From an uncultured Eubacteriales bacterium (GTDB lineage: Bacteria; Bacillota; Clostridia; Oscillospirales; UBA644), in the NCBI GenBank assembly GCA_902373415.1, contig CABKLX010000007.1:87894-151893 (forward strand): 64,000 nucleotides of DNA, written 5' to 3'. The translations under genes and the position numbers were made by a program. The first letter of the stretch is position 1. The number at the start of each line of letters is the position of its first letter. The notes under the pieces are model-generated. The model made no database searches, had not been told where the DNA came from, and saw only the letters and a list, made by a program, of their open reading frames with translations. This document shows positions 16,404 through 62,442 of this stretch, piece by piece.

Positions 16404-16479
16404 GGGAGTTTAGCTCAGCTGGGAGAGCATCTGTCTTACAAACAGAGGGTCACAGGTTCGAGCCCTGTAACTCCCACCA
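16404..16479 (+). tRNA. tRNA-Val (anticodon TAC)
   Basis: GGGAGTT…AACTCCC acceptor stem; anticodon arm TCTGT-CTTACAA-ACAGA; T-loop GGTTCGAGCCC; ends ACCA (CCA encoded). Confidence 0.9.
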
Positions 16480-16522
16480 CTTTCTTAAACACCGCGCCGA
16501 ACGGTTCGGTCGCATTATATAC

Positions 16523-16599
16523 GGCTTCGTAGTTCAGTTGGTTAGAACGCCGCCCTGTCACGGCGGAGGTCGTGGGTTCGAGTCCCATCGGAGTCGCCA
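16523..16599 (+). tRNA. tRNA-Asp (anticodon GTC)
   Basis: anticodon arm CCGCC-CTGTCAC-GGCGG; T-arm GTGGGTTCGAGTCCCAT; acceptor stem has two G-U pairs; CCA encoded. Confidence 0.85.
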
Positions 16600-16606
16600 T
16601 TTTTTT

Positions 16607-16682
16607 GCGGTATTAGCTCATCTGGTAGAGCGCAACCTTGCCAAGGTTGAGGTAGCGGGTTCGAGCCCCGTATACCGCTCCA
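16607..16682 (+). tRNA. tRNA-Gly (anticodon GCC)
   Basis: GCGGTAT…ATACCGC acceptor stem; anticodon arm CAACC-TTGCCAA-GGTTG; T-loop GGTTCGAGCCC; CCA encoded. Confidence 0.9.
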
Positions 16683-16933: not shown

Positions 16934-17851
16934 CTATGACGGATAGCGTGCCAGTTTATAATTCTTTATTTCCATCGTGCAGTCGAAACTCCCGTGGATC
17001 TCCCAGCCGATGTTCGTTCCCGTGAAACAGAGATCGTCCGCGGTGATCTGTCTGCCGAAAATGCCGGACTCATTTATCCTGTTTACGAGTTTTTTGATGT
17101 GAGGCGTCAGATCGACCTCAAAGTGTGTCCATTCTTTTGTCGTTTTCAGACGGAGCGCGTTGGTTCTGCCTCCCATTGAATCGACCGTCGAAAGCGCGTA
17201 GATCATGCATCCGCTCGCGATGTCGTGCTGCCAGTTTGTCGGTTGAAGTCCGCGGCTGTCGAATATCCGCATTCCGAACCATACAAACCCCGGTCCGTCG
17301 GTCGCGCGTACATACAGGAATATCAGAAATTCGGCCGCGCTGACGCCTTCACCGACGCAGTCGGGTTTGAAATCCGCGAGACGGAGATCTCCGGAAACAA
17401 CGTACTTACCCGCGCTGAGAGGGGAATCGTCAAAAAAATCGGAGGAGGAGGACGTGTTTTCAAGCAACAGATGCGGCCACGCGTCTTCTCCGGCGGGCGC
17501 GCCGTCGTAGTATCCCGCGGCGTTCAGCCGAAGAGAAACGCTGTCCTGCACGGGATCGTATGTCACGGTCTTTACTTTTCCGTCCGTCAGAACGTTCGGG
17601 TCTCCCGTGTCAACGCGGTCGTCCCACAGGCACGGTCCCGAATTCCATTGGGCGAGGATCCATTCGGGAGACGCGCTGTTTTCGGGAAATGTTCCGAGAT
17701 CTTCATAACTTCCGTCGGAACGGAGTTGACTGCGAACGGCAAAACCGTTCGTAAACCCCGAATTTCCGAATAAATATTTCCGAACACTGCAACTGCTCAA
17801 CAAAACGATCACCAAGATTCCCGATATTATTGCGGATAATACTTTTTTCAT
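16934..17851 (-). CDS. hypothetical lipoprotein
   Basis: start placed at MKKVLSAIISGILVIVLLSSCS (lipobox) with RBS AAGGAGatattttATG; the ORF track's 63-codon upstream extension is ignored. Confidence 0.7.
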   Translation of the reverse strand: MKKVLSAIISGILVIVLLSSCSVRKYLFGNSGFTNGFAVRSQLRSDGSYEDLGTFPENSASPEWILAQWNSGPCLWDDRVDTGDPNVLTDGKVKTVTYDPVQDSVSLRLNAAGYYDGAPAGEDAWPHLLLENTSSSSDFFDDSPLSAGKYVVSGDLRLADFKPDCVGEGVSAAEFLIFLYVRATDGPGFVWFGMRIFDSRGLQPTNWQHDIASGCMIYALSTVDSMGGRTNALRLKTTKEWTHFEVDLTPHIKKLVNRINESGIFGRQITADDLCFTGTNIGWEIHGSFDCTMEIKNYKLARYPS

Positions 17852-18032
17852 AAAATATCTCCTTTTAAGGTTCTGTCCGCCGCCGTTTTCCTCCTCGGAC
17901 AGATAAAGCGCCGCATATATGTTAACCTTATCATAACCCCGACGGTTTGTCAAGCCTTTCGGAGCGAAAAATCGTTTTGTCTCTGATTTTCTGTCGGTCT
18001 TCGGCTGTCTGACACGGTATATCGGCAAAGAA

Positions 18033-18060
18033 AGCGGCATCCGTATTCGCGGATGCCGCT
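18033..18060 (+). other. hairpin 8 nt upstream of the intron 5' fragment (terminator-like homing-site structure)
   Basis: agcggcatccg tattcg cggatgccgct: 11-bp perfect stem, no T-run. Confidence 0.5.
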
Positions 18061-18068
18061 CGGCTTAT

Positions 18069-18127
18069 GTGCGCCCGGTGAGCGCACGTCCTATGGGGTG
18101 AAAGTCCCGAAGTTGCCCGGTAACGGA
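18069..18127 (+). mobile_element. truncated 5' end (about 59 nt of domain I) of a class-IIC-like group II intron
   Basis: GTGCGCCCGGTGAGCGCACGTCCTATGGGGTGAAAGTCCCGAAGTTGCCCGGTAACGG; canonical GUGCG 5' boundary; 54 of 58 positions match the start of the full intron at 21753; similarity stops abruptly at 18127. Confidence 0.65.
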
Positions 18128-18415
18128 GTGTCAACCAAGTACCTCAATCGGTATCTCGCAATGTTCGTCGCTCTCGAACAGGCGGGACGCTCCCTGTTCC
18201 ATCCTGACGTGGATGCAGTTAGAATCATGCTTTCCCGGGTGAATACCGCTCTGCCAATCCGCTCTCTTCGCAAAGATGGCCTTTTGGCAATTTGACGATT
18301 AGGTCCAATGTTTTAAACTAACACGAAAATAATTGTCCGATTTCAACAAAAAAACGGAAGAACCGTCAAAAATGGGTTGTTTTGGAGCCAAATGTGTGGT
18401 AGAATCATTTTGTCA

Positions 18416-18496
18416 AGTTTTAAAACGTTTTAAAACAGAGGAGGCGGGGGCTGCCTGATCCCAATCCGTGTTCCCACATCTTAAAACGTTTAAATA
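18416..18496 (+). promoter_or_regulatory. candidate LacI-family operator palindromes in the rhamnosidase promoter region
   Basis: gTTTTAAAACGTTTTAAAAC (perfect palindrome with a central CG) and a second cTTAAAACGTTTAAat about 45 nt downstream; preceded by ttgttt-17-TGgTAGAAT promoter-like elements. Confidence 0.4.
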
Positions 18497-18602
18497 AAGG
18501 CGCATACCGGCGGCTGCCGGGACACGCGGGCGGGGACGGTTTCCACCGCGTATTGCAAAAATCCCGGTCAATCAGAAAAATCTGTCAGATGGAGGCGGCG
18601 AC

Positions 18603-20774
18603 ATGGCATTTGAAAACAGTTCCTTTATCAAACCGGCGGAGCAGTTTGACCCGGCGCGGCTGGACTACGCGCCCATGTTCCGGAAAAAATTCACGGTGGA
18701 CACGGCGGTGCAATTCGCGGTGCTGACGGTTTGTGGTCTGGGATACGGCTACTATTATCTCAACGGCAGCGAGATGACGCCGGACCTGTTCACGGCGCCG
18801 GTGAGCAACTACGAAAAAACCCTGTGGTACAACCGCTATGACGTGACGGAGCAGATCAAAACCGGAGAGAACATCTTGGCCGTGATCTGCGGCAATGGCT
18901 GGTACAATGAGGGCATCAGGACCGCGTGGGACTATGACGCCGCGCCATGGCGCGACATCCCCAAATTCATTCTGACCCTGGAAATCAACGGAGAAGTGGC
19001 GGTCCGCAGTGACGCAAGCTGGAGATATACCTTAAAATCGCCCTATCTGTATAATCAGCTCCGGGTGGGTGAGCACTTTGATGCCAGATTGTACGACGAG
19101 AACTGGAACCAGCCGGACTTTGACGACAGCGCCTGGGGGTATGCCAAAGAGGATGACCATCCGCCGAAAGGAATCTTCCGGGAGTGCCTTTGCCAGCCCA
19201 TCCGGGTATGCGGCGAATACCCGCCGAAGTCGGTGAAAAAAATCGGAGAGGACCGGTATTTGTTTGACTTTGGGCTAAATATGTCGGGCGTTGCCCGGCT
19301 GAAGGTCCATCAGAGCGCCGGAGACCGGATCGTACTGGAATACGCCGAAAGCATGAATCCGGACAATACCATCCAATACAATGACATGGACAATCCCCAC
19401 TATTACCCGGACAGCCCGTTCCAGACGGACGAATTCATCTGCGGCGGCGGGGAAATGACGTGGACACCCAAATTTACTTATCACGGCTTCCGGTATGTGG
19501 TGGTCACGGGGCTGAAAGAGGCAACCGCGGAAACACTGACGGCGCTGTTTATCCATCAGGATGTAAACCGGATCAGCGACTTTGAATGCTCTGACGAGAA
19601 CCTGAACAGCCTGTTCCGGATCGGCATCCAGGCAACCTGGTCCAATCTGTTCTACATGCCCACGGACTGCCCCACCCGGGAGAAGCTGGGTTGGATGAAC
19701 GATGCCCAAAGCTCCATCGAACAGATGCTGACGGACTTCGACATGGAAAAGCTGCTGACGAAATGGTGGCAGGATATCTGCGACGCCATGCGGGAGGACG
19801 GCATGCTGCCGGGGATTGTGCCCAGTTCGGGTTGGGGTTACGAGTGGGGCAACGGCCCCGTTTCGGAGGGAACCCTGTTTGAGATCCCTTACAGGATCTA
19901 TCTGCACACCGGTGACGATACCCTGCTGAAAAAAGGTCTGACCTATTTCAAAAAGTACAACCGGTATTTGCAGGGCTGCAAGGATGCCAAGGGCGATATC
20001 TGCTACGGACTGGATGACTGGGCGCCTCCGGATAACACGGACAAGGTTGGCGCGGCTTTTATCAACAAGGTGTTTACCATCAAATTCCTGCGGATTACCA
20101 TCCTGGCCCAACGGGTCAGCGGCGAGGACCCGGCGGAAACCCAGGCGCTTCTGGACCGGGAAATTCAGGAAATCCGGAACCGCTACCTGGATGAGACGGG
20201 CCGATGCACCATCCACAAGCAGACGGCGGTGGCCATGCTGGTGTACAACGGTCTGTATGAAAATCTGGCGCCCCTGTCGGAACAGCTGAAAGAACTGGTG
20301 GAGGAAAAGAATTTCCACCACGACTGCGGCATGGTGGGCCTGCGGCGGTTGTACATGGCACTGAATCGCTGCGGCCTGCAGGAATACGCCTACCGCATCA
20401 TCACGGCCAGAGGCTTCCCGTCCTATGTGAGCTGGCTGGAGGACGGCGCCACCGCGCTTTGTGAGTTCTGGGATATGTCGGTGTCTCAAAACCACCATAT
20501 GTATTCCGATTTCATGTCCTGGATGATGAAAACCATTCTGGGCATCGGTGCGGATATTGCCCATCCCGGCTTTACACAGGTGGAAATCAATCCGTATTTC
20601 TTCCGGGAACTCACTTACGCCAGGGGCTATTGCGGTACGGTGCGCGGGCGCATCGGCGTCGCCTGGAAGCGTACGAGTGACAGAATCGAGCTGACGGTGG
20701 AAGTGCCGGAGGGCATGACGGTCACTTGCCGGGGGCAGACCCTGAAAAGCGGCGTCAATGTGATCACCGCCTGA
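18603..20774 (+). CDS. alpha-L-rhamnosidase, glycoside hydrolase family 78
   Basis: 723 aa; GH78 catalytic-domain signature MPTDCPTREKLGWMNDAQ; (alpha/alpha)6 six-hairpin C-terminal region; RBS GGAGGcggcgacATG. Confidence 0.85.
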   Translation: MAFENSSFIKPAEQFDPARLDYAPMFRKKFTVDTAVQFAVLTVCGLGYGYYYLNGSEMTPDLFTAPVSNYEKTLWYNRYDVTEQIKTGENILAVICGNGWYNEGIRTAWDYDAAPWRDIPKFILTLEINGEVAVRSDASWRYTLKSPYLYNQLRVGEHFDARLYDENWNQPDFDDSAWGYAKEDDHPPKGIFRECLCQPIRVCGEYPPKSVKKIGEDRYLFDFGLNMSGVARLKVHQSAGDRIVLEYAESMNPDNTIQYNDMDNPHYYPDSPFQTDEFICGGGEMTWTPKFTYHGFRYVVVTGLKEATAETLTALFIHQDVNRISDFECSDENLNSLFRIGIQATWSNLFYMPTDCPTREKLGWMNDAQSSIEQMLTDFDMEKLLTKWWQDICDAMREDGMLPGIVPSSGWGYEWGNGPVSEGTLFEIPYRIYLHTGDDTLLKKGLTYFKKYNRYLQGCKDAKGDICYGLDDWAPPDNTDKVGAAFINKVFTIKFLRITILAQRVSGEDPAETQALLDREIQEIRNRYLDETGRCTIHKQTAVAMLVYNGLYENLAPLSEQLKELVEEKNFHHDCGMVGLRRLYMALNRCGLQEYAYRIITARGFPSYVSWLEDGATALCEFWDMSVSQNHHMYSDFMSWMMKTILGIGADIAHPGFTQVEINPYFFRELTYARGYCGTVRGRIGVAWKRTSDRIELTVEVPEGMTVTCRGQTLKSGVNVITA

Positions 20775-20821
20775 GCCGTATCCGGCGGAAATCTGGAATT
20801 ACTGAATGAGGGGCGATTGCC

Positions 20822-21547
20822 GTGAACATCATGAAATTACTGGCGGAAAAGGCAAAGGACAACTGGAATGCCCGGCCGGTGACCATTGCGTTTTTGGGGG
20901 ACAGCGTCACCCAGGGATGCTTTGAGATTTACAAAAAGAATGAGACGGAGATTGAAACCGTATTCGACAAAAACAATGCCTATCATACGGATGTGGCCAA
21001 AATTCTCGCCGTTCTGTTTCCCAGCGTGCCGGTAAATATCTTCAACGCGGGCATCAGCGGGGACAATGCGCCCCATGCCCTGGAACGGATGGAGCAGGAT
21101 GTCCTGTGCCATCACCCGGACTTAACGGTGGTATGCTTTGGCTTGAACGACTGCGGCAACGGGGTCGAAAAGGTGGAGCAGTATGCCCAGGCGCTGCGAG
21201 GGATTTTTGAAAAGCTGCGGCAGGCGGGTTCAGAGATCATATTCATGACGCCCAATATGATGAATCCCACGGTCAGCTGTCATCTGACGGACCCGCTGAT
21301 GCGGAGCATCGCGGAGGACACCATGCGCCGGCAGAACGGCGGGGTGTTGGAATGCTACCTGGAGAACGCCAGAAAGGTGTGTAGGGAATATGGGGTCACC
21401 CTCTGTGACTGCTACGAAAAGTGGAAGCTTCTGTATGAGAACGGTGTGGATGTGACGGAGCTTTTGGCCAATAAAATCAACCATCCCACCCGGGAAATGA
21501 ACTGGCTGTTTGCGGTGTCCCTGGTGGACACCATGCTGCGGGGATAA
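20822..21547 (+). CDS. SGNH/GDSL-family hydrolase (esterase / acetylesterase-like)
   Basis: 241 aa; block I AFLGDSVTQG with catalytic Ser; block III GLNDCG; C-terminal DxxH-type motif (NHPTREMN). Confidence 0.75.
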   Translation: MNIMKLLAEKAKDNWNARPVTIAFLGDSVTQGCFEIYKKNETEIETVFDKNNAYHTDVAKILAVLFPSVPVNIFNAGISGDNAPHALERMEQDVLCHHPDLTVVCFGLNDCGNGVEKVEQYAQALRGIFEKLRQAGSEIIFMTPNMMNPTVSCHLTDPLMRSIAEDTMRRQNGGVLECYLENARKVCREYGVTLCDCYEKWKLLYENGVDVTELLANKINHPTREMNWLFAVSLVDTMLRG

Positions 21548-21572
21548 CATCACGAAACAAGGAGGAAACAAT

Positions 21573-21695
21573 ATGAAAACCATCAAAGACAAGCAGCTCC
21601 TGGTCGGAGCGGACTTTGCCGGCTATCCGCTGAAGGAAGTTGTCTGCGAGCATCTGGGGGACTACCCGCTGAAGCTGGAAACCAAGCCGGAATAA
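21573..21695 (+). pseudogene. 40-aa N-terminal fragment of an RpiB/LacA/LacB-family sugar-phosphate isomerase
   Basis: MKTIKDKQLLVGADFAGYPLKEVVCEHLGDYPLKLETKPE* resembles the first ~40 residues of RpiB/LacAB (M.IAIGxDxAGxxLKExIxxYL); intact members are ~150 aa; RBS AAGGAGG present. Confidence 0.5.
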
Positions 21696-21716
21696 ACCCT
21701 CCGGTCACGAAACCAA

Positions 21717-21744
21717 GGCGGCATGCTCCGGCGTGCCGCTTTTT
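21717..21744 (+). terminator. rho-independent terminator (intron homing-site hairpin)
   Basis: GGCGGCATGC tccg GCGTGCCGCT followed by TTTTT; the intron begins 8 nt later. Confidence 0.7.
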
Positions 21745-21752
21745 CATACTAT

Positions 21753-22452
21753 GGGCGCCCGGTGAGCGCACGTTCTATAGGGTGAAAGTCCCGAAGTTGC
21801 CCGGTAGCGGGAAGACTTAGCCAAAGGCAAGGGTGTCCATCGCGAGGTGGAATCTGAAGAAAGCCGGATTTTGGGAGTTAAAAGGTCTCCCAATGGGCAA
21901 AACTCTGGCCTGACGAACAGAAATCGCATATAAGGCCGCCGGCGAGGGTAAGTTTGCCTAGCAAAACAAAGCCCAATAGCTACACGGAATCGCTCGCGGT
22001 AAATGCGGCAGGTAAAGAGAGAAAGAATGTGTGAGTACCCGGGGAGGTCTCACAGGCGCATCAAAGTAGACATATTCGAAAAAAAATGCGTAGTAACAAC
22101 GAACTGTGAGAAGTCAGCAGAGGTCATAGTACCGGAAAAAAACCGGGAAGGGCTGAACAATCGTTAGTCCTTTGGAAACAATGGAAGCTACCGAAAACGA
22201 GGGTAAAGAATCTGATTCAGCTTAGCATCCCGGATTGGGCTGCCTACAGATACGGCAACTCTCGCAAAGGCTATTGGCGATTGTCGGGGACAACAACTCT
22301 CGCGAGAGCAATCTCAAACAAAAGACTCGCACAGGCCGGATACTACAGCATCCTTGACCGGTACGAGTCTCTGCACTTATGCGATTGAACCGCCGTGTAC
22401 CGAACGGTACGCACGGTGGTGTGAGAGGTCGGGGCTATTCAGCCCCTCCTAC
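21753..22452 (+). mobile_element. ORF-less group II intron, class IIC-like, about 700 nt
   Basis: 5' GGGCGCCCGGTGAGCGCAC…GGGTGAAAGTCCCGAAG; domain I-type motifs (TAGCCAAAGGCAAGGGTGTCCATCGCGAGGTGGAATCTGAAGAAAGCCGG; CCCGGGGAGGTCTCA…GAAGTCAGCAGAGGTCATAGTACCGG); domain V GAACCGCCGTGTACCGAACGGTACGCACGGTGGT at 22387-22420; domain VI GTCGGGGCTATTCAGCCCCTCCTAC ending …TAC at 22452; no ORF longer than ~100 codons inside. Confidence 0.75.
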
Positions 22453-22478
22453 TCTATTCTGTTTCGTTTCTCGGCGCG

Positions 22479-23333
22479 TCAGTCTTCTTTTCCGCCGCCG
22501 ATAAGTTCTTCAAGAGCGCCGTCGAGATCGTGCGTCTCGTATTCGTCGATCTTTCCGCCGTCGCAAAGTTCCGCGAGGCTCGGGTCGATCGGGAGGCGGG
22601 CAAGAACGGGAAGCCCGTGCTTCTCCGCGATGCGGTCGATGTTGCTCTTTCCGAAAATATGATGTTCTTTTCCGCAGTCGGGACAGCGGAAATAACTGTA
22701 ATTTTCAACGAGTCCTATAACGGGAATGTCCATTTTTTCCGCCATGTTCACGGCTTTATCCACGATCATGGAGACCAGATCCTGCGGAGACGTGACGATG
22801 ATAATCCCGTCAACGGGTATGGATTGGAACACCGTGAGCGGAATGTCGCCCGTTCCCGGAGGCATATCGATATACATGACGTCAACATCGCCCCAGACCA
22901 CGTCCGTCCAGAATTGCTTGACCGTGCCCGCAATGACGGGACCGCGCCATATTACGGGGGTCGTTTCGTCCTCAACGAGCATATTCAGGCTCATCGCGCG
23001 GACGCCGCTTTTCGATATTCCCGGGTAGATCCCGTTATCGTCGGCAAGTGCGCGGTCGCTTATTCCGAGCATTTTCGGAATAGAAGGACCTGTTATATCG
23101 GCGTCGAGCACGGCGGTCTTGAAGCCTTTTTTCGCAGTCATGACGGAAAGCAGGGAAGTGACGGTCGATTTCCCGACGCCGCCCTTGCCGCTGACAACGG
23201 CATAGACCTTTCCGACGGTGCTCAATGAATTTACGGGTTCCAAAAAACTCTGCGGAGCGTTTCTCGAAGAACAGTTTTCTCCGCAGGTCGAACAGTTATG
23301 AGTGCATTCGCTTATCGGATCATATCCTTTCAA
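22479..23333 (-). CDS. Mrp/NBP35 (ApbC)-family iron-sulfur cluster carrier ATPase
   Basis: 284 aa; N-terminal Cys-rich segment; deviant Walker A GKGGVGKST; CPxC motif near the C-terminus (FRCPDCGKEH). Confidence 0.85.
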   Translation of the reverse strand: MKGYDPISECTHNCSTCGENCSSRNAPQSFLEPVNSLSTVGKVYAVVSGKGGVGKSTVTSLLSVMTAKKGFKTAVLDADITGPSIPKMLGISDRALADDNGIYPGISKSGVRAMSLNMLVEDETTPVIWRGPVIAGTVKQFWTDVVWGDVDVMYIDMPPGTGDIPLTVFQSIPVDGIIIVTSPQDLVSMIVDKAVNMAEKMDIPVIGLVENYSYFRCPDCGKEHHIFGKSNIDRIAEKHGLPVLARLPIDPSLAELCDGGKIDEYETHDLDGALEELIGGGKED

Positions 23334-23413
23334 TGCGATCTTCGGCGGAGCGGCGGATCAAACCGTACCTTTTTACTCCGTCTGACATATTATACCCCCG
23401 TAAAGGCAAAAAG

Positions 23414-23626
23414 TCAAGGGTCAAGATCCTCAATTTCGAATATATCCGAAAAACTTGCAAAATCGTTGCGCTCGATATGCGTCATCTCGTGTTTGAGAAC
23501 GAGTTTCTGCTGATCGGGCGTAAGCGATGAGTTTATATAAATGTTGTAGTCTCCCTCTTCGTCCGTGACGGTCACCCCGCGGATGGTCATCGGAAGCGAA
23601 AGAAGGCGGACGTATATTTCGTTCAT
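23414..23626 (-). CDS. mini ImmA/IrrE-like HExxH metallopeptidase-motif protein (70 aa)
   Basis: contains HEMTHIERND; abuts the stop of the upstream XRE regulator gene. Confidence 0.5.
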   Translation of the reverse strand: MNEIYVRLLSLPMTIRGVTVTDEEGDYNIYINSSLTPDQQKLVLKHEMTHIERNDFASFSDIFEIEDLDP

Positions 23627-24037
23627 TTACCTTCTGTTCTGTTTCAGCGCCTCGATGATCGCGACCGTTCTCTCTATATCCTCACGGCTCGCGTTTTTCG
23701 ACGCGGAGAAAAGCATTTTGACCTCGGGTCTTGTCCTGAGCATCTCTCTGAGTTCGGCAAGATCCTCGTTGAGATGGCGCGTGTTGGGCGTTATCCTCGC
23801 AGACATTTCGGAGTCGAGCAGATAATCGTCTCCGAGTTCTTCGTTTTCCATAAAAAGTGTGTCAACGGACACGTTAAAGTGTTTTGCAATTCTTTGAAGC
23901 ATTTCAAGATCGGGCTTTCTGTTGCCCGTTTCCCACATCGCGACGGTGCTGAGCGCGACGCCGAGCGCCTGTGAAAGTTCTTTTTGCGTCATGCCGCTGT
24001 TTTTGCGCAGGACTTTCAAATTTTCCGAAAACCGCAT
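23627..24037 (-). CDS. XRE-family helix-turn-helix transcriptional regulator
   Basis: 136 aa; HTH SGMTQKELSQALGVALSTVAMWETGNRKP. Confidence 0.8.
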   Translation of the reverse strand: MRFSENLKVLRKNSGMTQKELSQALGVALSTVAMWETGNRKPDLEMLQRIAKHFNVSVDTLFMENEELGDDYLLDSEMSARITPNTRHLNEDLAELREMLRTRPEVKMLFSASKNASREDIERTVAIIEALKQNRR

Positions 24038-24230
24038 AGGTAAACCTCTCTTCTTTTTTCTTTTCCTTATTATACATCACGTTTCGTGATTTGTCAAGAG
24101 GTAAAATGCAAAAAATATCACTTTTTTATTTCCGTTCGGATCTCTGACGCGGAAAAAGACGGTTCTTCCCGCATTTTTTCTTCCTCTCGTAGCGTGACAT
24201 AATATTTTATCGAAAAACGATAAAAATATA

Positions 24231-24259
24231 TTGACAAACATGGAAATATATGGTATAAT
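24231..24259 (+). promoter_or_regulatory. sigma-A promoter (TTGACA-17-TGgTATAAT) of the DUF2975-HTH operon
   Basis: ataTTGACAaacatggaaatatatgGTATAATcac; consensus -35 and extended -10; RBS GGAGG 7 nt before the ATG at 24312. Confidence 0.75.
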
Positions 24260-24311
24260 CACTCCAAACAAAGGTCGTGAATTTTAAAAAACGCCGATCG
24301 GAGGTTCTGAT

Positions 24312-24785
24312 ATGCCGAAAATATCGCGAAAAGCGTCGGTGCTGCTTTCCATATGTCTGACGGTACTGTTTCTTGCGGTTCTGATCGTTTGCGCGTTCGC
24401 AATGCCGATGCTTTGCAATGTGTTTGCGGATATTGCGACGATGCATCCGGGCAGAAGTGAACTCTGCGTCGCGGAGAGAATATACCTGCTTGTTGCGGGA
24501 TATCTGATCGTTGCAGTCGCCGCCGTCGCGGATATTCTGATGTTTCTGCTTCTTTTGCGCATTCGCAGAGGGCTTGTCTTCACGCGCGAAAGCGTGTCTG
24601 TCATACGGGCGGTTTCATGGTGCGCGATCTGTTGCGGAGTGATTTTCGCCCTGCTCGGATACATATTTTATATAGCTTATGTGATCGCCGTTGCCGTTTT
24701 GTTTCTCGGGCTTTGCCTGCGGGTCGTTAAAAATGTCATTGAAGAAGCGACCGAATTGAAAAACGAAAACGATCTGACGGTGTGA
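24312..24785 (+). CDS. DUF2975-type integral membrane protein
   Basis: 157 aa; four predicted TM helices; it forms the usual pair with the immediately downstream small HTH regulator. Confidence 0.65.
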   Translation: MPKISRKASVLLSICLTVLFLAVLIVCAFAMPMLCNVFADIATMHPGRSELCVAERIYLLVAGYLIVAVAAVADILMFLLLLRIRRGLVFTRESVSVIRAVSWCAICCGVIFALLGYIFYIAYVIAVAVLFLGLCLRVVKNVIEEATELKNENDLTV

Positions 24786-24795
24786 GTGTGAAATT

Positions 24796-25005
24796 ATGAT
24801 CATAATAAATCTTGACGTCATGATGGCGAAGCGCAAAATATCGCTGAACGAACTTTCCGAAAAGGTCGGGATCACGCTCGCCAATCTGTCGATACTCAAA
24901 AACAACAAAGCGCGCGCCGTGCGGTTTTCGACGCTCGACGCGATCTGCAAAGCCCTCGACTGCGAGGTCGGGGACATTCTCGAATACAGAAAAGAGGAGG
25001 AATAA
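24796..25005 (+). CDS. small XRE/YozG-like HTH transcriptional regulator
   Basis: 69 aa; KISLNELSEKVGITLANLSILKNNKARAVRFSTLDAICKALDCEVGDIL. Confidence 0.8.
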   Translation: MIIINLDVMMAKRKISLNELSEKVGITLANLSILKNNKARAVRFSTLDAICKALDCEVGDILEYRKEEE

Positions 25006-25009
25006 AACA

Positions 25010-26848
25010 ATGAACGATCCGAAAAAAGACGCGTCCGCGGGTGAAGTTGCGAATGTCTTCCCCGAACGCTCCGACAGCGACCGATCTGCGGGCGGTCATG
25101 CCGAAACTTCCGTTCCGCCGACATCTTCACGGCAGGCGCCTCCGCCGCAGCCCTGTTCGCAGGCACAGCCGCAGACATATTCCGATGCACAGAACCCGCC
25201 GCAACAGCACCCCTATTCGCAGGCACAGCCGCAGATATCTTATCAGCCGTCCGCTCCCGCATACACGGTGGTCGCTCCGACACGCGCGGCGCGCCCGAAA
25301 CGCGAATTTACCGCCGCCGAGTCCGTGTTCGCATGGGTATGCTTTATTCTCGGTTATCTGTTCTGCCGTGTCCTCGCAGGCGGTTTCAACCCGCTCGGAG
25401 GCTTTCTGTTCACCGTTCTGATCTTCTCGGTGACCGCCGCTGTCATAAAGATCGAAAAAGCCCTTCCGCCGTTCGCCGCATGGGTCGCCGCCGTGTCCGG
25501 CGTCGTCCTTGCCGCGTCGCTGATCGTTACGGGCAATGAAACCGTGAGGTTCTTCGCGTATCTTTATTCCGCCGCGGCTTATGTCTATTTCGTTTATGCC
25601 GCGTTCGGGAACAAACTCGAAAAGGGCTTTTCCAATCTGCTCTGTCTCGATTTTGTCAAAGCGGCGTTTATATGTCCTTTCACTTCATTTGCGAATATCT
25701 TCCGCAGTTTCGGCGGAAAAAGCAGGAAAAACGGATCGAAAACGTTTTTGAAAGTCCTTGCCGGCATCGGGATCGCTCTGATCCCCTGCATTGTGATAAT
25801 TTCGCTGCTGTGCTATGACGAACGGTTCCGTGAAATGCTCTCTTTTATAAAAAACATCAATTTCGGCACGGTCGTGTCGCATCTGTTCTCCGCGGCGTTC
25901 GGCGTTCCCGTTGCGATGTACGTTTACGGGCTTCTGACGGGGTCAAAGGATAAAAAAACCGAGAAGACCCTGACGGCGGATGATTGCCGCATGCTCGGAG
26001 AACAGACGCGGATAGCCCCCGCCGTGACGGTTGCCGCCGCGACTTTTCCGATCGCGCTGATATATGTCTTTTTCTTTATTTCCCAATGGCAATATTACGT
26101 TTCCGCTTTTTCGGGGAAAATTCCGAGCGGAACGAGTTATTCCGAATACGCCCGCAACGGCTTTTTTGAGCTGGTCGCCGTTTCGTTCATCAATTTTGTC
26201 ATCATCGCGCTCGTCGGGCTGTTCATTAAGCGCAACGGCAAAGGCGCGGAGATAACGCGAAAGACCGTTTCGGTCGTGCTGAGTCTGATGACGCTCGTCC
26301 TCATCGGAACCGCCGCGTCAAAACTCGTTCTTTATATAGACGCGTACGGACTGACGCCGAAAAGAGTTTACGCGGCGTGGGCAATGCTCGTCCTCGCTGT
26401 CCTTTTCCTGCTCGTCACCGTCAAACAGTTCGCGAAAAAACTTCCGCTCGTGACGGTTTCCGTCTTCGCCGTGATCGTCCTTTTCGCGGGGCTTGCCTTC
26501 TCGAACACGGATTCCCTCATCGCGAGATACAATGTCGATCGCTGTCTTGCGGGAACGCTCGACTGCCTTGACACGGAGGCTCTGACCGAATGCGGCGACT
26601 GCGCCGTTCCTCCGCTCGTCGATTTCGTCGCCGATTATGACGAAAAGAACGGAACGAAAGCCGCCGATCTGAACGTCGAAAACTTCCCGTCGGATATCGG
26701 CTTCGGCGAAAGCAACGACGAAAGGGCGCAGTATATCGCCGCCGTAAGATTTCTGAAAGAAAAGGCGGAGGAGGAAACAGGAGTGTTCTCCGAGACGATT
26801 CCGCGATACAAGGCGCGCAAAGCGCTTGCAAGCATCGGGCTCGGATAA
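25010..26848 (+). CDS. polytopic membrane protein with Pro/Gln-rich N-terminal tail (DUF4153-like)
   Basis: 612 aa; N-terminal ~110 aa of low complexity (PPPQPCSQAQPQ…); at least 10 hydrophobic helices; no recognisable catalytic motif. Confidence 0.55.
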   Translation: MNDPKKDASAGEVANVFPERSDSDRSAGGHAETSVPPTSSRQAPPPQPCSQAQPQTYSDAQNPPQQHPYSQAQPQISYQPSAPAYTVVAPTRAARPKREFTAAESVFAWVCFILGYLFCRVLAGGFNPLGGFLFTVLIFSVTAAVIKIEKALPPFAAWVAAVSGVVLAASLIVTGNETVRFFAYLYSAAAYVYFVYAAFGNKLEKGFSNLLCLDFVKAAFICPFTSFANIFRSFGGKSRKNGSKTFLKVLAGIGIALIPCIVIISLLCYDERFREMLSFIKNINFGTVVSHLFSAAFGVPVAMYVYGLLTGSKDKKTEKTLTADDCRMLGEQTRIAPAVTVAAATFPIALIYVFFFISQWQYYVSAFSGKIPSGTSYSEYARNGFFELVAVSFINFVIIALVGLFIKRNGKGAEITRKTVSVVLSLMTLVLIGTAASKLVLYIDAYGLTPKRVYAAWAMLVLAVLFLLVTVKQFAKKLPLVTVSVFAVIVLFAGLAFSNTDSLIARYNVDRCLAGTLDCLDTEALTECGDCAVPPLVDFVADYDEKNGTKAADLNVENFPSDIGFGESNDERAQYIAAVRFLKEKAEEETGVFSETIPRYKARKALASIGLG

Positions 26849-26896
26849 AAAATACCGCCCCGTTTTCTCTTTCTTCCGTAAAAACTCCTTTCAAAC

Positions 26897-26930
26897 ACCG
26901 TCCGAATATACTTCGGACGGTTCGCTTTTT
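26897..26930 (+). terminator. rho-independent terminator
   Basis: accgtccgaa tatac ttcggacggt followed by tcgcttttt. Confidence 0.7.
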
Positions 26931-27129
26931 GCCCTCAAATGCGCCTATTTTGAAAAATTTTGCATTTATATGTTGCAATATAAGAAAAAGTGTGATAAAA
27001 TAAAAAGCAATCCGCATATAACGGAAAACGGACAAAAGGAGCTTCGGATCTCGGGCTCCGTCACTTTCCGAAAAGCGGAAAAGAACCGATACGCGGGCAG
27101 GAACCGCGCGCAGCGTCAGGAGAAGTATT

Positions 27130-28449
27130 ATGTTGAAAACAGTTAAATTCGGGGGAAGTTCCCTTGCGGACGCCGAACATTTCAAAAAAGCCGCGGCGAT
27201 AGTGAAAGCCGAGGACTGCCGCAGATACGCGGTCGCTTCCGCCCCGGGCAAAAGACATCCCGACGATGAAAAAGTCACCGATATGCTGATCGCACTTTCT
27301 CGCGCCGAGCAGACGGGCGAAGACCCGAAAGCCCTGCTTTCCGCGATCTCCGCGCGTTTTGCCGACATTATAAAAGGGCTTGAACTCGATTTTTCTCTTG
27401 ATGAGGATCTCGCTCTGATCGAGAGTAAAGTTTGCGACGGAACAGCCACCCGCGATTATCTCGCTTCCCGCGGCGAATATCTGAACGCGAAAGTCATGGC
27501 GGAATATCTCGGATATGATTTCATCGACGCCGCCGAGTGTATCTTTTTCGATGAAAACGGTTTCTTTGACGCGGAAAAAACAAACGTCGCTCTCGCAAAG
27601 AGACTGACGAAACACGAACGCGCCGTTCTTCCGGGGTTCTACGGCTCGACGCCCGACGGACAGGTCAAAACTTTTTCCCGCGGCGGCTCCGATGTGACGG
27701 GATCCATTCTCGCAAGAGCCTCCCGCTCCGATGTTTACGAAAACTGGACAGACGTTTCGGGAATGCTCATGGCAGATCCGCGCTGTGTAAAAGACCCGTT
27801 CCGTATCGACACGATAACTTACCGCGAGCTCCGCGAACTTTCGTACATGGGAGCGTCCGTTCTTCACGAGGACGCGATCTTTCCCGTCCGTATCGCGGGG
27901 ATTCCGATAAACATCAGAAATACCAACGCGCCCGATGACAGGGGAACCTGGATCAAGGCGTTTACGAACGAAAAACCGCTTCATGTCATAACCGGTATTG
28001 CCGGCAAAAAAGGGCTGACCGCGATCTACATCGAAAAAGAGATGATGAACAATCAGGTCGGCTTCGGCAAGGTCGTTCTTGAAATACTCGCCGATCACGG
28101 CATCGGGTTTGAACATCTGCCGTCCGGCATCGACACGATGTCCGTCATTGTCAACACCTCCGATTTTGAAGGAGAAAAGCGCGAGGTCGTTCTCAAAGCG
28201 CTTCGCGACAGACTTCATCCGGACACGATAAAGGTTCATGACGACATCGCTCTCGTCGCCGTTGTCGGCAGAGGAATGGTCAACGCCGCGGGTACAGCCG
28301 TCCGCGTTTTTTCCGCGCTCGCAAAACAGCACATCAACGTCAGAATGATAGATCAGGGCTCTTCCGAGCTCAATATAATCGTCGGAGTTGACGCGGATAA
28401 TCTTTATCCCGCGATCCGCGCGATATATTCGGAATTTGTAAGGGGGTAA
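27130..28449 (+). CDS. aspartate kinase
   Basis: 439 aa; N-term KFGGSSLADAEHFKKAA (amino-acid kinase fold) and C-terminal ACT-domain region; RBS caGGAGaagtattATG. Confidence 0.85.
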   Translation: MLKTVKFGGSSLADAEHFKKAAAIVKAEDCRRYAVASAPGKRHPDDEKVTDMLIALSRAEQTGEDPKALLSAISARFADIIKGLELDFSLDEDLALIESKVCDGTATRDYLASRGEYLNAKVMAEYLGYDFIDAAECIFFDENGFFDAEKTNVALAKRLTKHERAVLPGFYGSTPDGQVKTFSRGGSDVTGSILARASRSDVYENWTDVSGMLMADPRCVKDPFRIDTITYRELRELSYMGASVLHEDAIFPVRIAGIPINIRNTNAPDDRGTWIKAFTNEKPLHVITGIAGKKGLTAIYIEKEMMNNQVGFGKVVLEILADHGIGFEHLPSGIDTMSVIVNTSDFEGEKREVVLKALRDRLHPDTIKVHDDIALVAVVGRGMVNAAGTAVRVFSALAKQHINVRMIDQGSSELNIIVGVDADNLYPAIRAIYSEFVRG

Positions 28450-28457
28450 AGACCGAA

Positions 28458-29669
28458 ATGATAGAAAAAGCGTCGAAACTGGACAATGTCCGTTATGAAA
28501 TAAGAGGCCCCGTCCTCGATGAGGCGAACCGTATGATCGCCGACGGCGCGAAAGTTCTCAAACTCAATATCGGCAATCCCGCGCCGTTCGGATTTACCAC
28601 GCCCGAGGAGATCATCCGCGATATGCAGATGAATTTGCACGACTGCGAGGGCTATTCCGATTCAAAAGGCATTTTTTCCGCCCGTAAGGCGATAATGCAG
28701 TACTGTCAGTTGAAACAGATCCCGAACGTCGATGTCGGCGACATATACACGGGCAACGGATGCAGTGAAATGATAACGCTTTCTTTGCAGGCGCTGCTCA
28801 ATTCGGGGGACGAGATCCTTCTGCCCGCTCCCGATTATCCGCTCTGGACGGCTTCCGTCAGCCTTGCGGGCGGCAGACCCGTTCATTATATCTGCGACGA
28901 GAAGAGCAACTGGTACCCCGATCTCGCGGATATCGAGAGCAAGATAACGCCGAAAACGAAAGGCATCGTCGTCATCAACCCGAACAATCCGACGGGCGTT
29001 CTTTATCCGAAGGAAGTTCTTGAAGGCATCGTCGACATCGCGCGCAGACACGGTCTTGTCATCTTCGCCGATGAGATATACGACCGTCTCGTTTTCGACG
29101 GCAAAAAACACTTCGCGATCGCTTCTCTCGCGCCCGACCTTTTCTGCGTCAACATAAACGGACTTTCAAAATCTCACCGTATGGCGGGCTTCCGTTGCGG
29201 TTGGATGTGCCTGAGCGGTCCGAAAGAGGACGCGAAAAGTTACATCGAGGGGCTGAACCTGCTTTCGTCCATGCGTCTTTGCTCGAACGTTCCCGCGCAG
29301 TCGATCATTCAGACGGCGCTCGGAGGCAGACAGAGCGCCGACGATCTGCTTCTCCCCGGAGGCAGGCTTTTCGATCAGCGTGAAGTCATCTATAACGAAC
29401 TCTCCGCGATCGACGGTATCAGCGTTGTCAGACCCGACGCGGCGTTTTACATCTTCCCGAAGATCGACACGCAGAAGATACATATCCGCAACGACGAGAA
29501 ATTCGCGATAGATCTTTTGAAGCAGAAGTATGTTCTGATCTCTCACGGAACGGGTTTCAATATGCCCGAACCGGGCTATTTCCGCATCGTCTATCTGCCC
29601 GAGAAGGAGATCCTGAAAGAGGCGTGCGTGAGACTGAAAGACTTTTTGGCGCATTACGCTCAGTTCTGA
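28458..29669 (+). CDS. class I/II PLP-dependent aminotransferase (alanine aminotransferase AlaA-like)
   Basis: 403 aa; LKLNIGNPAPFGF…; PLP-lysine region SKSHRMAGFRCGW; NPNNPTG motif. Confidence 0.8.
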   Translation: MIEKASKLDNVRYEIRGPVLDEANRMIADGAKVLKLNIGNPAPFGFTTPEEIIRDMQMNLHDCEGYSDSKGIFSARKAIMQYCQLKQIPNVDVGDIYTGNGCSEMITLSLQALLNSGDEILLPAPDYPLWTASVSLAGGRPVHYICDEKSNWYPDLADIESKITPKTKGIVVINPNNPTGVLYPKEVLEGIVDIARRHGLVIFADEIYDRLVFDGKKHFAIASLAPDLFCVNINGLSKSHRMAGFRCGWMCLSGPKEDAKSYIEGLNLLSSMRLCSNVPAQSIIQTALGGRQSADDLLLPGGRLFDQREVIYNELSAIDGISVVRPDAAFYIFPKIDTQKIHIRNDEKFAIDLLKQKYVLISHGTGFNMPEPGYFRIVYLPEKEILKEACVRLKDFLAHYAQF

Positions 29670-29689
29670 TAATATTATACAGCATGAAA

Positions 29690-29727
29690 AAACGGTTTTG
29701 GAGAATAAAGTCTCCGAAACCGTTTTT
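29690..29727. terminator. bidirectional rho-independent terminator between convergent genes
   Basis: AAACGGTTTTGGAGA ataaag TCTCCGAAACCGTTT flanked by an A-run and a T-run. Confidence 0.75.
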
Positions 29728-29814
29728 AATGCTTTTTTTCGTGATTTTTTTCGGCTGAAAACGCCTTTTCCGTCCCATGTCGGGCGAAAGAAAAAGTTTT
29801 TCGCCGCGAGGCGT

Positions 29815-30363
29815 TTATTTTGAGTATACCTCGGGTTTAAGCACGCCGATATAGGGGAGCGCGCGGAATCTTTCGTTGTAGTCAAGTCCGTATCCGACAA
29901 CGAATTCGTCGGGAATGATCTTGCCGACATAGTCGGGCGTGAAGTCAACGACGCGGCGCGACGGCTTGTCGAGCAACGTGCAGGTCCTGACCGAACGCGC
30001 ACCTTTCAGTTTAAGATAATCTATCAGATACGAAAGCGTTCTTCCGCTGTCGATAATATCTTCGACAACGAGCAGATCGCATTTCGCGATGTCCTCGCGC
30101 ATGAGATCGAGAATGATGTTGACGTGACCCGACGAGACTGTTTCGCCGCCGTAAGACGAAACGCGCATGAAATCGATCTCAACGGGGATCGTCAGCCTTT
30201 TCATCAGATCGCCCATGAAAACGACCGAGCCTTTCAGAATGCAGACAAGAACGAGTTTTCTGTCTTCTCCGATATAATCGACGTCGATTTCGTGAGCAAT
30301 GCGCGAAACTATCTCGTTCAACTCTTCCGTGTCGATGAGTACCTTTTCAATTTCTCCTATCAT
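29815..30363 (-). CDS. hpt: hypoxanthine phosphoribosyltransferase
   Basis: 182 aa; PRPP-binding motif LLVVEDIIDSGRTL; typical Hpt length and N-terminus. Confidence 0.9.
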   Translation of the reverse strand: MIGEIEKVLIDTEELNEIVSRIAHEIDVDYIGEDRKLVLVCILKGSVVFMGDLMKRLTIPVEIDFMRVSSYGGETVSSGHVNIILDLMREDIAKCDLLVVEDIIDSGRTLSYLIDYLKLKGARSVRTCTLLDKPSRRVVDFTPDYVGKIIPDEFVVGYGLDYNERFRALPYIGVLKPEVYSK

Positions 30364-30503
30364 TCTTTCCTCTCCCCGATAATATCATATTCTCTTTTCG
30401 CGTATAAACAGGCGCAGGAACATTATAGCACAGCGCGAAAGCATTTTCAAGGTCTGACGGCGAATTTTGTTTTTTTTATATCAAAAAGACCGACCGTCGC
30501 GGG

Positions 30504-37786: not shown

Positions 37787-38401
37787 TCAAATTTTACTTC
37801 CGCAGCCCGAACAAAATCTTGCCGAACCGTCAACTTCCTTTCCGCAGTTCGGACAGTGTCTTTTTTGTTCAACCTTAGCTCCGCAGACCGAGCAGAACAG
37901 ATCTCTGTCCGATAATTCCGCACCGCAATTGGTGCAGATTTTTGCGGTTGACGGCTGAACCGAAACGGCAGGCTGAGCCAAAGGAGTAAAAGTCGCTATC
38001 GGCGGTTCGGTCGGGTAAGAGACGGCTGTTATCGCGGTAACTTTATTGCTTTCCTTCAAAAATTCATCAATATTCAGACTGAAAAGTTGTGCGGGAACAC
38101 CCAGCACATCCATTGCTGCTGAGGTAAGGTCGTTGGCGTATTTTTCGTACCTTGCACCGGCGACCTGAGCAACGGAAAAGCGCAGATCTACCGCCGTGCC
38201 GCCATGATACGGAATGAAATGAATTGTGCAGGCGCCGCCGTTCATGTTGTACTTCATGGAAAAATTCAGCCCGAAACTGATCGTGTGGTACGGTTCCTGA
38301 TTGCAATTTCTCCTGAAACGGCTGTTGGTTGCCGCAGTCATATAACTGTTGTAAACGGATACAACATCTGCGGAAAAGAAGTAACAAACATCTCTTCTCA
38401 T
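37787..38401 (-). CDS. hypothetical protein with C-terminal double zinc ribbon
   Basis: 204 aa; RBS GGGAGAatagaaATG; C-terminal CTNCG…FCSVCG…CPNCG…FCSGCG. Confidence 0.55.
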   Translation of the reverse strand: MRRDVCYFFSADVVSVYNSYMTAATNSRFRRNCNQEPYHTISFGLNFSMKYNMNGGACTIHFIPYHGGTAVDLRFSVAQVAGARYEKYANDLTSAAMDVLGVPAQLFSLNIDEFLKESNKVTAITAVSYPTEPPIATFTPLAQPAVSVQPSTAKICTNCGAELSDRDLFCSVCGAKVEQKRHCPNCGKEVDGSARFCSGCGSKI

Positions 38402-38878
38402 TTCTATTCTCCCGAAAATTTTATTCGCTCTGCATATTCGGAACAGCGAAAGTTGTTTACTCCGAACGGTTTGCGCTTGAACATCCGATATGCTATATGT
38501 AACTTTGTGTGTAAATTATACCATACGTAGCGATTTTTGTCAATGAATGTCCTGAAACTTGTCGGGAATAAAATTTCAAAAATCTCTTTGCCGATAATCG
38601 ACGAAAAAGCGCGGAACCCGAATGCGACCTATGTCTGTGTGAGTGCGGGAGAAAGTTTCTGTCCGTCGAAAATTGTAAAACGCTCCGTTTGCATAGAGGC
38701 CGACATAGGCGAAACGCTTCGCGCGGCGGTCGGATCGTGAGATGATGACTGCGTTTGTGTTTTCGCGCGTTTTTCGATAAAAAGGGTGGTGATCTTTTTC
38801 GCACCGCAGAGATCTTTTGCCCGAATGCAAAAATATCCGCATACTTTTCGGTATGCGGATATTCTGTTCCGTTGTTTT

Positions 38879-39070
38879 TTATTCTTTTATCTCGCCCGCC
38901 CATTTGAACGCGAATTTTGCGACGATGACGGCGATGATCTCGTTGATGATCGCCGCCGCGACGATAGTCCCCGATATTAAGGCGGCGACAGACGCGTCGG
39001 CGTCGGTCTCGGAAAGCGTCTTGACGGCGATGCCCGTGAACACGAGAGACACTCCCGAGTGGGGCAACAA
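38879..39070 (-). CDS. small hydrophobic protein (hypothetical)
   Basis: 63 aa; two hydrophobic helices; sits 68 nt downstream of the ATPase gene; weak support. Confidence 0.3.
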   Translation of the reverse strand: MLPHSGVSLVFTGIAVKTLSETDADASVAALISGTIVAAAIINEIIAVIVAKFAFKWAGEIKE

Positions 39071-39137
39071 TTCTGTTATATAATTTCCGAAATATACCCG
39101 AAAACCGTTTTTCGGTCACGGATAAACCGTTTTGCGG

Positions 39138-46405: not shown

Positions 46406-46606
46406 TGAAAAAAACGAAGAACCGTCATTTCCGGTGTCTGAGGCGAGGCGTCGGCGTTTTTATGCGCCGCGCTGAACGGGTTTCCGCATGTTATTTCCCG
46501 AGGGAATATATGTTTTTGTGACCTGTCGGAGCGCCCTCTTTGCCATTAGGAGGCGCGGCTCTGAGTTTATATTTTACATTTTACATTTTTTGGAGGTATC
46601 ATCTTT

Positions 46607-48733: not shown

Positions 48734-48971
48734 TCGCCGAACAGTACACACTGTTTTACAGTTACATAGGTTAAAGGACGGGGCAGCCGTTTCGGCTGCT
48801 CCGTTTTCAAACATCTTTATCGGACATCTTCGGGCTTCCGATATATCCGTATGCCCCCGCTTTTTCGGCGAGGGAAAAAGATATTTTTGATCTCCGTGCG
48901 CCTCTTTTTGAGCTTCCGTTTTGCGGATGCGTACGGATATTGCCGGAAATCTGAAATCATGGGAGTTGGGT

Positions 48972-62323: not shown

Positions 62324-62442
62324 GCTGGACGGATTAACAATATCTGTAATCAAGCAACAGAATTTGTAAATGCTGAACTTATATATAATTAAATAGATAT
62401 GACAAATTGCCTGCCAAGATGTTTTGGCAGGCAATTTTACTT

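Follow-up and report, generated by a model that had tools for sequence, protein, structure and literature searches.

How did a rhamnoside-degrading operon with the codon habits of one kind of genome come to lie in the genome of another? The question is raised by a stretch of 64,000 nucleotides (nt) from an uncultured Eubacteriales bacterium of the UBA644 lineage (contig CABKLX010000007.1, positions 87,894 to 151,893 of the forward strand), here called the window, which forms part of a 230,948-bp metagenome-assembled scaffold (ENA ERZ28582824, FERR18-1 scaffold_10). Between a lipoprotein-like gene and mrp it holds an islet that encodes a GH78 alpha-L-rhamnosidase and an SGNH hydrolase. We find that window 18069-22458 is a four-part mosaic in the intergenic spacer adjoining mrp, composed of a group II intron stump, an insertion sequence (IS) relic, an operon fragment and a second intron; it is a fragment of a foreign rhamnoside-degrading operon that is falling into decay between relics of mobile elements. 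All of these components are known kinds of element and relic-flanked gene transfer is common, but the boundaries here are unusually clear. In our judgement the mosaic was probably built when the foreign operon fragment joined a resident intron by way of intron homology. The locus documents the transfer of a carbohydrate-active operon into a widespread species of human-gut Clostridia, with the donor-type context, the boundaries and the subsequent decay all still readable.

An operon fragment with intact relatives elsewhere

The closest relatives of the GH78 protein, P0002 and P0003, are encoded on contigs L003-L006, where the operon is intact and runs in the order divergent second GH78 gene, LacI gene, GH78, SGNH, a 190-residue RpiB/LacAB protein and terminator, followed by unrelated genes. 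The window matches these contigs at 84% nucleotide identity from just upstream of the GH78 start through the terminator (by blastn, window 18576-21655 corresponds to L003 9974-13035 and window 21649-21743 to L003 13479-13573), with dS, the synonymous divergence, of about 0.65 between the cassette and L003. Homology to the relatives' LacI-GH78 intergenic region starts at about 18329; the operon fragment begins about 275 nt upstream of GH78, with the promoter and operator inside it and the LacI gene outside. The window shares with these LacI-regulated GH78 operons of gut Clostridia the promoter, an operator, GH78, SGNH, both ends of rpiB, the terminator and the order of all of these, whereas it differs in having no LacI gene and no divergent GH78 gene, a gutted rpiB, an extra operator and another neighbourhood. 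The second GH78 gene of L003 (6414-8588), divergent from LacI, was not received by the window.

The islet differs from the rest of the window in its codon usage. The G+C content at third codon positions (GC3) is 0.75 in GH78 and 0.73 in SGNH as compared to 0.615 +/- 0.06 in 40 other open reading frames (ORFs) of the window; these are its two highest values, about 2 standard deviations over the mean. A first, sequence-only reading of this stretch had described a switch to G/C-ending codons (CTG, GGC, CCG, ACC) beside flanking genes that favour codons such as AAA and TTT. This holds for CTG and for the foreign character of the usage overall, but GGC, CCG and ACC differ only modestly between islet and native genes, and the use of AAA and TTT in GH78 shows no difference from the native pool. 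For leucine, CTG stands at 0.77 in GH78 and 0.57 in SGNH, as against 0.26 in the native window pool and 0.78 in the pool of genes flanking the operon in L003; for valine, GTG stands at 0.63 and 0.55, as against 0.14 and 0.60. GCC and ATC are likewise raised in the islet genes.

Synonymous-usage distances separate the two genomes further. Taking 33 unambiguous window genes as the native pool, GH78 lies at a distance of 0.279 (z = 4.2) and SGNH at 0.360 (z = 6.1), whereas native genes lie at 0.105 +/- 0.042 from their own pool, with a maximum of 0.204. To the housekeeping pool of the L003 flanks the distances are 0.095 for GH78 and 0.182 for SGNH, as compared to a mean of 0.52 and a minimum of 0.35 for the native window genes. 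The L003 flanks (carA, carB, an NFACT-family gene and others) have GC3 values of 0.72-0.81, the sole exception being an HTH regulator at 0.52, and overall G+C is 57% at the L003 locus, about 51% in the window and 49% in L011, the nearest genome relative. The cassette bears the codon signature of L003-type genomes, unlike that of its present host; that its GC3 might be a chance outlier was ruled out by the codon-specific test. Elsewhere in the window, long ORFs on either strand at 46574-48979, 37787-39119 and 62407-63981 lie at distances of 0.29-0.50 from the window pool, and these three stretches may be foreign or non-coding.

L011, which is nearest among the genomes of the species collection and whose Mrp protein is 87% identical in amino acid sequence, is syntenic with window 22498-30371. 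Beyond mrp come a terminator of its own and unrelated genes; neither the intron nor the cassette is found there. Within the syntenic right flank a further insertion or deletion separates the two genomes (L011 3515-6735, about 3.2 kb, versus window 26943-26624, about 0.3 kb). The sequence-only reading had pointed to the mrp locus as the place to compare gene order among relatives. The gene order of the window is not that of L011, which lacks the cassette after mrp, but the left flank is not comparable, since relatives of its lipoprotein-like gene are all at or below 45% identity and the best of them, P0149, lies in an unrelated context; the synteny evidence is one-sided. No match to GH78 was found among viral contigs, and none to the whole islet among plasmids in a distant-mode search.

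The horizontal acquisition of a rhamnoside-related cassette, as first proposed from the letters of the window, is well supported, chiefly because the cassette codons fit L003-type genomes and not the window; falling well beyond native usage but within that of L003-type genomes, they call for import at some point. The border relics and the absence of anything comparable after mrp in L011 agree with this. We hold it very improbable that the operon is instead native and vertically inherited, its odd codons reflecting expression level or a local mutation bias and the relics being incidental. Such an origin would sit well with a GC3 excess that by itself amounts to only about 2 standard deviations, with a GH78 cluster that holds 281 member sequences at 90% identity, and with existing GH78-like capacity at 35787, where the second rhamnosidase-like gene that had been noted does have GH78-type domains. 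It would leave unexplained, however, why CTG and GTG in GH78 take the values of L003-type genomes and not native ones, why the regulator gene is absent and rpiB a pseudogene, why an IS ends exactly at the boundary of homology, and why a sister genome has no cassette at this site.

Two working genes and a gutted third

The GH78 gene (18603-20774, + strand) is intact and encodes 723 residues, a length equal to that of its relatives, with 86-87% amino acid identity to P0002 and P0003. Its four Pfam domains (N-terminal, concanavalin-like, six-hairpin catalytic and C-terminal; PF08531, PF05592, PF17389 and PF17390) score well over their cut-offs, and NCBIfam rhamnosidase models match below their equivalog cut-offs. 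The SGNH/GDSL hydrolase (20822-21547, + strand; 241 residues) matches PF13472 (78 bits) and PF00657 (41 bits), and its translation shows the blocks FLGDS, NAGISG, GLND and NHP; the position three residues ahead of the His is not an Asp. The enzyme is probably a carbohydrate esterase. These assignments bear out the expectation of a full rhamnosidase plus an SGNH esterase. Both genes are intact and under purifying selection, with ratios of nonsynonymous to synonymous divergence (dN/dS) of 0.12 for GH78 and 0.14 for SGNH, and their pairing suggests that plant glycosides or pectic material are stripped of rhamnose and ester groups.

The third gene has fared differently. What remains of rpiB/lacAB (21573-21695, + strand) is 40 codons, to which alignment and tblastn match both termini of the 190-residue protein, namely residues 1-28 and 179-190. 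The loss is a 450-nt in-frame deletion between two AGCATCT repeats, a microhomology of 7 nt, with its joint at 21649-21655, which leaves a pseudogene lacking 150 of its 190 codons. Downstream of the joint, window 21649-21743 comprises the last 47 nt of rpiB and the relatives' native terminator; the stop codon and terminator hairpin of the operon itself are kept. The stump had been recognised correctly as RpiB/LacAB-type and as followed by a terminator, but not its cause: it was not cut at the intron junction, and the 3' end of the operon was not lost there, as had been supposed, the deletion being internal. The 40-residue stub has no Pfam hit, the LacAB_rpiB domain being about 140 residues long, and the 190-residue L003 ortholog matches PF02502 over residues 10-140. 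L180, a contig from a further sample, shares the identical deletion allele.

A promoter and operators without a repressor gene nearby

Upstream of GH78, the promoter and leader (18326-18602, + strand) align with the LacI-GH78 intergenic region of L003-L006. A -35 element TTGTTT (18377-18382, + strand) is followed after 17 nt by an extended -10 element, TGGTAGAAT, at 18397-18405, and directly after the -10 lies operator 1, TTAAAACGTTTTAA (18420-18433, + strand), which is conserved in L003-L006; in the relatives' alignment the conserved operator form is TTAAAACG(T/A)TTTAA, centred on CG. Operator 2 (18481-18494, + strand), a one-mismatch copy of operator 1, lies within a 56-nt insert in the leader (18441-18496) that is not in L003-L006. 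The two operator-like palindromes in the leader compare with a chance expectation of 0.15 per window. A further one-mismatch palindrome, TTAAAACGCTTGAA at 61294-61307, is distant from the cassette and may be due to chance. The claim that the segment brings its own promoter with LacI-type operators is upheld in that the promoter and operator 1 are conserved in LacI-bearing relatives. A scan for consensus promoters and terminators listed neither this conserved promoter nor the two hairpins that are described below.

In L003 and L005 the LacI gene sits directly upstream of GH78. The window, as compared to a complete LacI repressor/operator unit, has the palindromic operator after the promoter but not the cognate gene: no LacI-family gene was found in the islet or in the 64-kb window (best tblastn E = 0.027). 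Because no cognate LacI is encoded in the window, derepression is predicted, and GH78 and SGNH are probably expressed from their own promoter without their repressor. If repression was lost in this way, unregulated expression of a rhamnosidase and an esterase would be expected. The promoter and the two enzyme genes, GH78 and SGNH, make up the working part of the islet; to its inert relics, the IS tail and the two intron copies, we now turn.

Intron relics behind two hairpins

On either side of the cassette lies one copy of a direct repeat of 61 nt (18066-18126 and 21750-21810), the two being 93% identical. The window has no further copy, and chance would provide none. The right copy runs on into a group II intron, while the left copy is its first 58 nt or so only. 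This stump (intron nt 1 to about 58; 18069-18126, + strand, repeated at 21753-21810) starts GTGCG and is IIC-like. A spacer of 8 nt, CGGCTTAT, separates it from hairpin 1 (18033-18060), a GC-rich stem-loop of 12 bp with a folding energy of -23.3 kcal/mol (RNAfold, in the 40 nt upstream of the stump). On the minus strand the sequence after hairpin 1 is TTTCTTT, and were 18069-22458 removed the hairpin would sit about 28 nt past the mrp stop codon. Hairpin 1 was probably the terminator of mrp to begin with, and the one ancestral target of the intron.

The second copy, intron B (21753-22458, + strand), lies behind hairpin 2 (21715-21742, + strand; -19.9 kcal/mol by RNAfold), the intrinsic terminator of the operon and the target of this second intron, with a spacer of 10 nt, TTCATACTAT. 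Hairpin 2 is homologous to L003 13526-13573. The sequence-only reading had taken intron B for a full intron, but it is a 706-nt IIC-like derivative whose reading frame is lost and whose mutated 5' end reads GGGCG and not GUGCG. Rfam models RF02001 (132 bits), RF01998 (51 bits) and RF00029 (42.9 bits, gathering threshold 40) match it, placing domains D1-D4 at 21836-22033 and 22089-22153 and D5-D6 at 22388-22457. It retains D1-D3, about the last 70 codons of the reverse transcriptase (RT)/maturase gene (22152-22385) and D5-D6; of the about 1886 nt that make up its full-length relatives, roughly nt 420-1605 are missing. Its 3' end was set from a conserved TCTAT/TCGGT after CCTAC, and its 3' exon, adjoining mrp, reads TCTGTTTCG. 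In all members among L099-L186 the hexamer at about 1880-1892 nt from the start (window 22454-22459) is TCGGTT, TCGATT or TCTATT after ...CCTAC, and which variant occurs goes with the intron sub-lineage rather than with the target. Splicing at the 3' end seems to take place, in this family, about 5 nt beyond the usual consensus, though the exact site is uncertain.

The stump and intron B have in common a motif, GAAGTTGCCC, that is rare among 91 copies of the intron from metagenomes, and in L139, a contig from a different sample, the two differ at nt 2 and nt 56 only. They are members of one and the same rare sub-lineage. Both are dead relics, the one because it is 58 nt long and the other because it has no RT gene and starts with GGGCG. 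The intron of L180 carries another internal deletion (L180 1872-2048 versus window 21866-22172), in which part of the maturase domain (GIIM) is kept and nt 114 to about 1430 are gone. The differing deletions in the window and L180 imply that a full-length intron once stood here and decayed independently by strain.

Those 91 copies came from a scan of metagenome assemblies, mostly from the human gut, with a 33-nt pattern of the intron 5' end; they collapse to 45 distinct sites once near-identical flanks are merged. A hairpin of -15 kcal/mol or lower occurs in the upstream 40 nt at 96% of the 45 sites, as compared to 7% of random 40-mers from the same contigs; hairpin and intron are a median of 7 nt apart, with TTAT at positions -4 to -1. 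Both intron sites of the window obey this rule. Full-length members measure about 1886 nt and encode a 464-residue protein with RVT_1 and GIIM domains and no endonuclease domain. Class IIC introns insert downstream of intrinsic terminators (PMC1702495, PMC4748821, PMC4424553). With B.h.I1 of Bacillus halodurans and O.i.I1 of Oceanobacillus iheyensis the present family shares the insertion after a terminator, the short 5'-exon match (...TTAT), the small size (about 1.9 kb) and an RT/maturase without endonuclease (PMC1702495, PMC4748821, PMC4424553); unlike working IIC introns, neither copy in the window is functional. We call the family IIC-like, an assignment made by target rule, size and the domains of the intron-encoded protein. 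With 45 distinct insertion sites obeying the IIC terminator-targeting rule, it is a large one.

An IS tail and its joint with the stump

The left 200 nt of the islet, unrecognised in the sequence-only reading, are the relic of an IS1595-family (ISXO2-like) element (18127-18325, + strand) and make up about its last 200 nt. They hold the last 56 transposase codons (18125-18292), the stop codon and the right end, ...AACTAACACG. A tblastn search of plasmids with the 56-residue tail and a Pfam search with the window fragment were blank. An exhaustive search of representative proteins found 13 short relatives of the tail, and the longer relatives P0126 and P0131 match PF12762 (DDE_Tnp_IS1595; 33 and 32 bits, cut-off 27) just upstream of the part in common. 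The window tail and about 30 nt downstream of it match the C-terminal end and right terminus of IS1595-family elements; the DDE domain and left end are absent from the window tail, and no inverted repeats were identified in it. In contigs L188-L198 the tail occurs at 95-97% identity in unrelated contexts. Homology to these contexts stops at about window 18325 and homology to L003 begins at about 18329, so that the right end of the IS coincides with the start of the cassette to within a few nt.

At the other end of the tail, the stump and the IS meet in a 6-nt microhomology, TAACGG (18121-18126, + strand). The native IS reads CACTTTAACGGAGTGCCAACC (L188), the intron CCCGGTA(G/A)CGGGAAG and the window CCCGGTAACGGAGTGTCAACC; in a second rendering of the joint the intact IS has CACTTTAACGGAGTG and the window CCCGGTAACGGAGTG. 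These sequences place an illegitimate crossover inside TAACGG. Whether by copying or by movement, the joint has reached more than one locus: it stands behind three different terminator hairpins. One is that of the window. The second belongs to L202, a contig of 515 nt from another sample, in which the stump, IS tail and GH78 promoter are those of the window at about 99% identity. The third, in L203, comes after a different gene and precedes the stump, an IS tail that is some 88% identical, and downstream sequence unlike that of the window. The exchange of flanks around the joint fits rearrangement through intron and IS homology, with the order of events not fixed. A 104-residue protein, P0123, has an IS66-like N-terminal coiled coil (a weak DUF6444 match) fused to the same IS1595 tail just upstream of the position at which the stump joins the IS (...GVSTKYLNRY), which makes it another partner at nearly the same breakpoint.

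Reality of the arrangement

The placement of the islet between the lipoprotein-like gene and mrp is a real arrangement, carried by independent assemblies. The left junction (hairpin 1, stump, IS tail, GH78) is unbroken in L002, L096 and L139, the last of these being 99.2% identical across 17703-21407. The right junction (SGNH, stub, terminator, intron, mrp) is unbroken in L180, which spans window 20499-21865 and 22173-24043. L096 and L093 lend additional support, the stump was recovered from further samples too (L096, L139), and every contig of the same species that was found carries the islet. A chimeric metagenome-assembled scaffold, joined falsely across the repeated intron, might be suspected in that Logan assemblies of the same run stop inside the intron (at nt 376 and 659) and that the middle of the intron is not the same in the window and in L180. 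Short-read contigs are, however, expected to end inside the intron because it is a multi-copy repeat in these samples, the deletion joints share 6-7 nt, too short a stretch to mislead a de Bruijn assembler, and both junctions are contiguous in the contigs just named. We consider an artefact of this kind extremely improbable.

How the cassette may have entered

The entry of the cassette can be reconstructed from this anatomy as follows. A terminator-targeting intron would first have sat about 8 nt after hairpin 1, where its first 58 nt or so remain, and the incoming DNA would already have had an intron copy behind its operon terminator. The two could then have been joined on the right by a homologous crossover within the intron and on the left by illegitimate recombination at TAACGG. 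Integration of a circle with intron nt 1-58 by a single crossover would have had the same outcome. Both routes lead to the order that is observed: 5' exon, intron nt 1-58, insert, complete intron, 3' exon. Later, rpiB would have suffered its in-frame 450-nt deletion and intron B would have lost its RT gene.

We infer that recombination through intron homology is the most likely route of entry. The sequence-only reading had offered two routes, insertion into a resident intron at nt 59 or co-mobilisation with an intron. The first does not stand, since a plain insertion at nt 59 would not duplicate intron nt 1-58, while the second comes closer to the structure. Transport of the cassette as cargo of the intron, or a template switch by the RT, is unlikely, as intron B is a relic of a complete ribozyme that lies outside the cassette.

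The proposed process resembles homology-facilitated illegitimate recombination or Campbell-type single-crossover integration. Here too there is long homology on one side, a 6-nt microhomology on the other and a duplication of the homologous segment; unlike in those processes, where flanking chromosomal DNA is the anchor, the anchor would be a dispersed retroelement, the process itself being read from structure.

Two other accounts have to be weighed. The locus might have decayed in place after two independent retrohomings, one behind hairpin 1 and one behind the terminator of the cassette, the cassette having arrived by another route (IS1595-mediated or within a larger island) and deletions having removed most of the first intron and most of the IS, the LacI gene and the DNA in between. 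Both 5' ends do independently obey the target rule (hairpin, a spacer of 8 or 10 nt, ...TAT), the locus is prone to deletion (the 450-nt rpiB loss, the loss of the intron frame and the different deletion in the L180 intron), and IS1595 tails cut at other points are scattered in related genomes. This course of events would, however, need at least one more large deletion, ending by chance within the first 58 nt of the intron and in the IS, and it gives no account of the same stump/IS-tail joint behind three hairpins, nor of the absence of any leftover sequence between the terminator spacer, intron B and mrp. We regard it as possible but rather unlikely.

Alternatively, the cassette might already have been present in the lineage and have moved next to mrp within the genome, through an inversion or translocation between dispersed intron copies. 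In keeping with this, L011 synteny stops exactly at the mrp-adjacent intron, the window and L202 have different hairpins in front of the stump and nearly the same cassette promoter after it, and assemblies break inside the intron, as expected of a multi-copy element in these samples. As the codons of the cassette lie outside the native and inside the L003-type range, import is needed in any case and relocation becomes an added step; moreover, the window holds no second cassette-related sequence. We think such a relocation improbable.

Entry by recombination between intron copies, which we prefer, has several points weighing against it. No empty site, in which hairpin 1 is directly followed by mrp, was found, and synteny is available on one side only. 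That of L011 ends exactly here, and an intragenomic rearrangement via intron copies could explain the placement. L003, at 84% nucleotide identity, is no more than a relative of the donor, and the distance between donor and recipient is judged by composition alone. The joint of L203, which is without the cassette, may predate the arrival of the cassette, which would complicate a single-step model. The terminator status of the two hairpins is drawn from RNAfold energies and homology, neither having been listed by the consensus scan. As to the loss of repression, the LacI search covered 64 kb only, and a paralog elsewhere in the genome could bind the operators.

The intron copies themselves suggest a broader role as recombination substrates that reshuffle the DNA flanking them. 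One might go further and speculate that dispersed IIC intron copies serve as portable landing pads, between which the cassette, from the IS tail through promoter, GH78, SGNH and the rpiB remnant to the terminator, would move as a unit with intron nt 1 to about 58, either as an excised circle that integrates by a single crossover or through recombination anchored in homology. The window and L202, two genomes in which one composite stands behind two terminators, would be instances of such moves. We hold this extension to be doubtful; if it were true, IIC introns would carry cargo operons from terminator to terminator and across gut Clostridia, with the cargo travelling outside the ribozyme.

Neighbouring genes

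The islet is flanked by native genes on both sides. To the left lies the lipoprotein-like gene (16934-17851, - strand), which encodes 305 residues, belongs to no Pfam family, is a called gene in L001 and L094 and is native in its codon usage; its cluster at 90% identity or above has 316 members, and the next relatives are those at or below 45% mentioned above. To the right, mrp (22479-23243, - strand) encodes an Mrp/ApbC-type Fe-S cluster carrier ATPase (Pfam PF10609, NCBIfam MrpORP/ApbC), and its stop codon is 20 nt from the 3' end of intron B. In an exact protein look-up the 284-residue form of Mrp, starting at TTG, had no record, while a 254-residue version is on record. Three tandem tRNA genes (16404-16679, + strand) lie 1.4 kb to the left of hairpin 1, away from the boundary of the islet.

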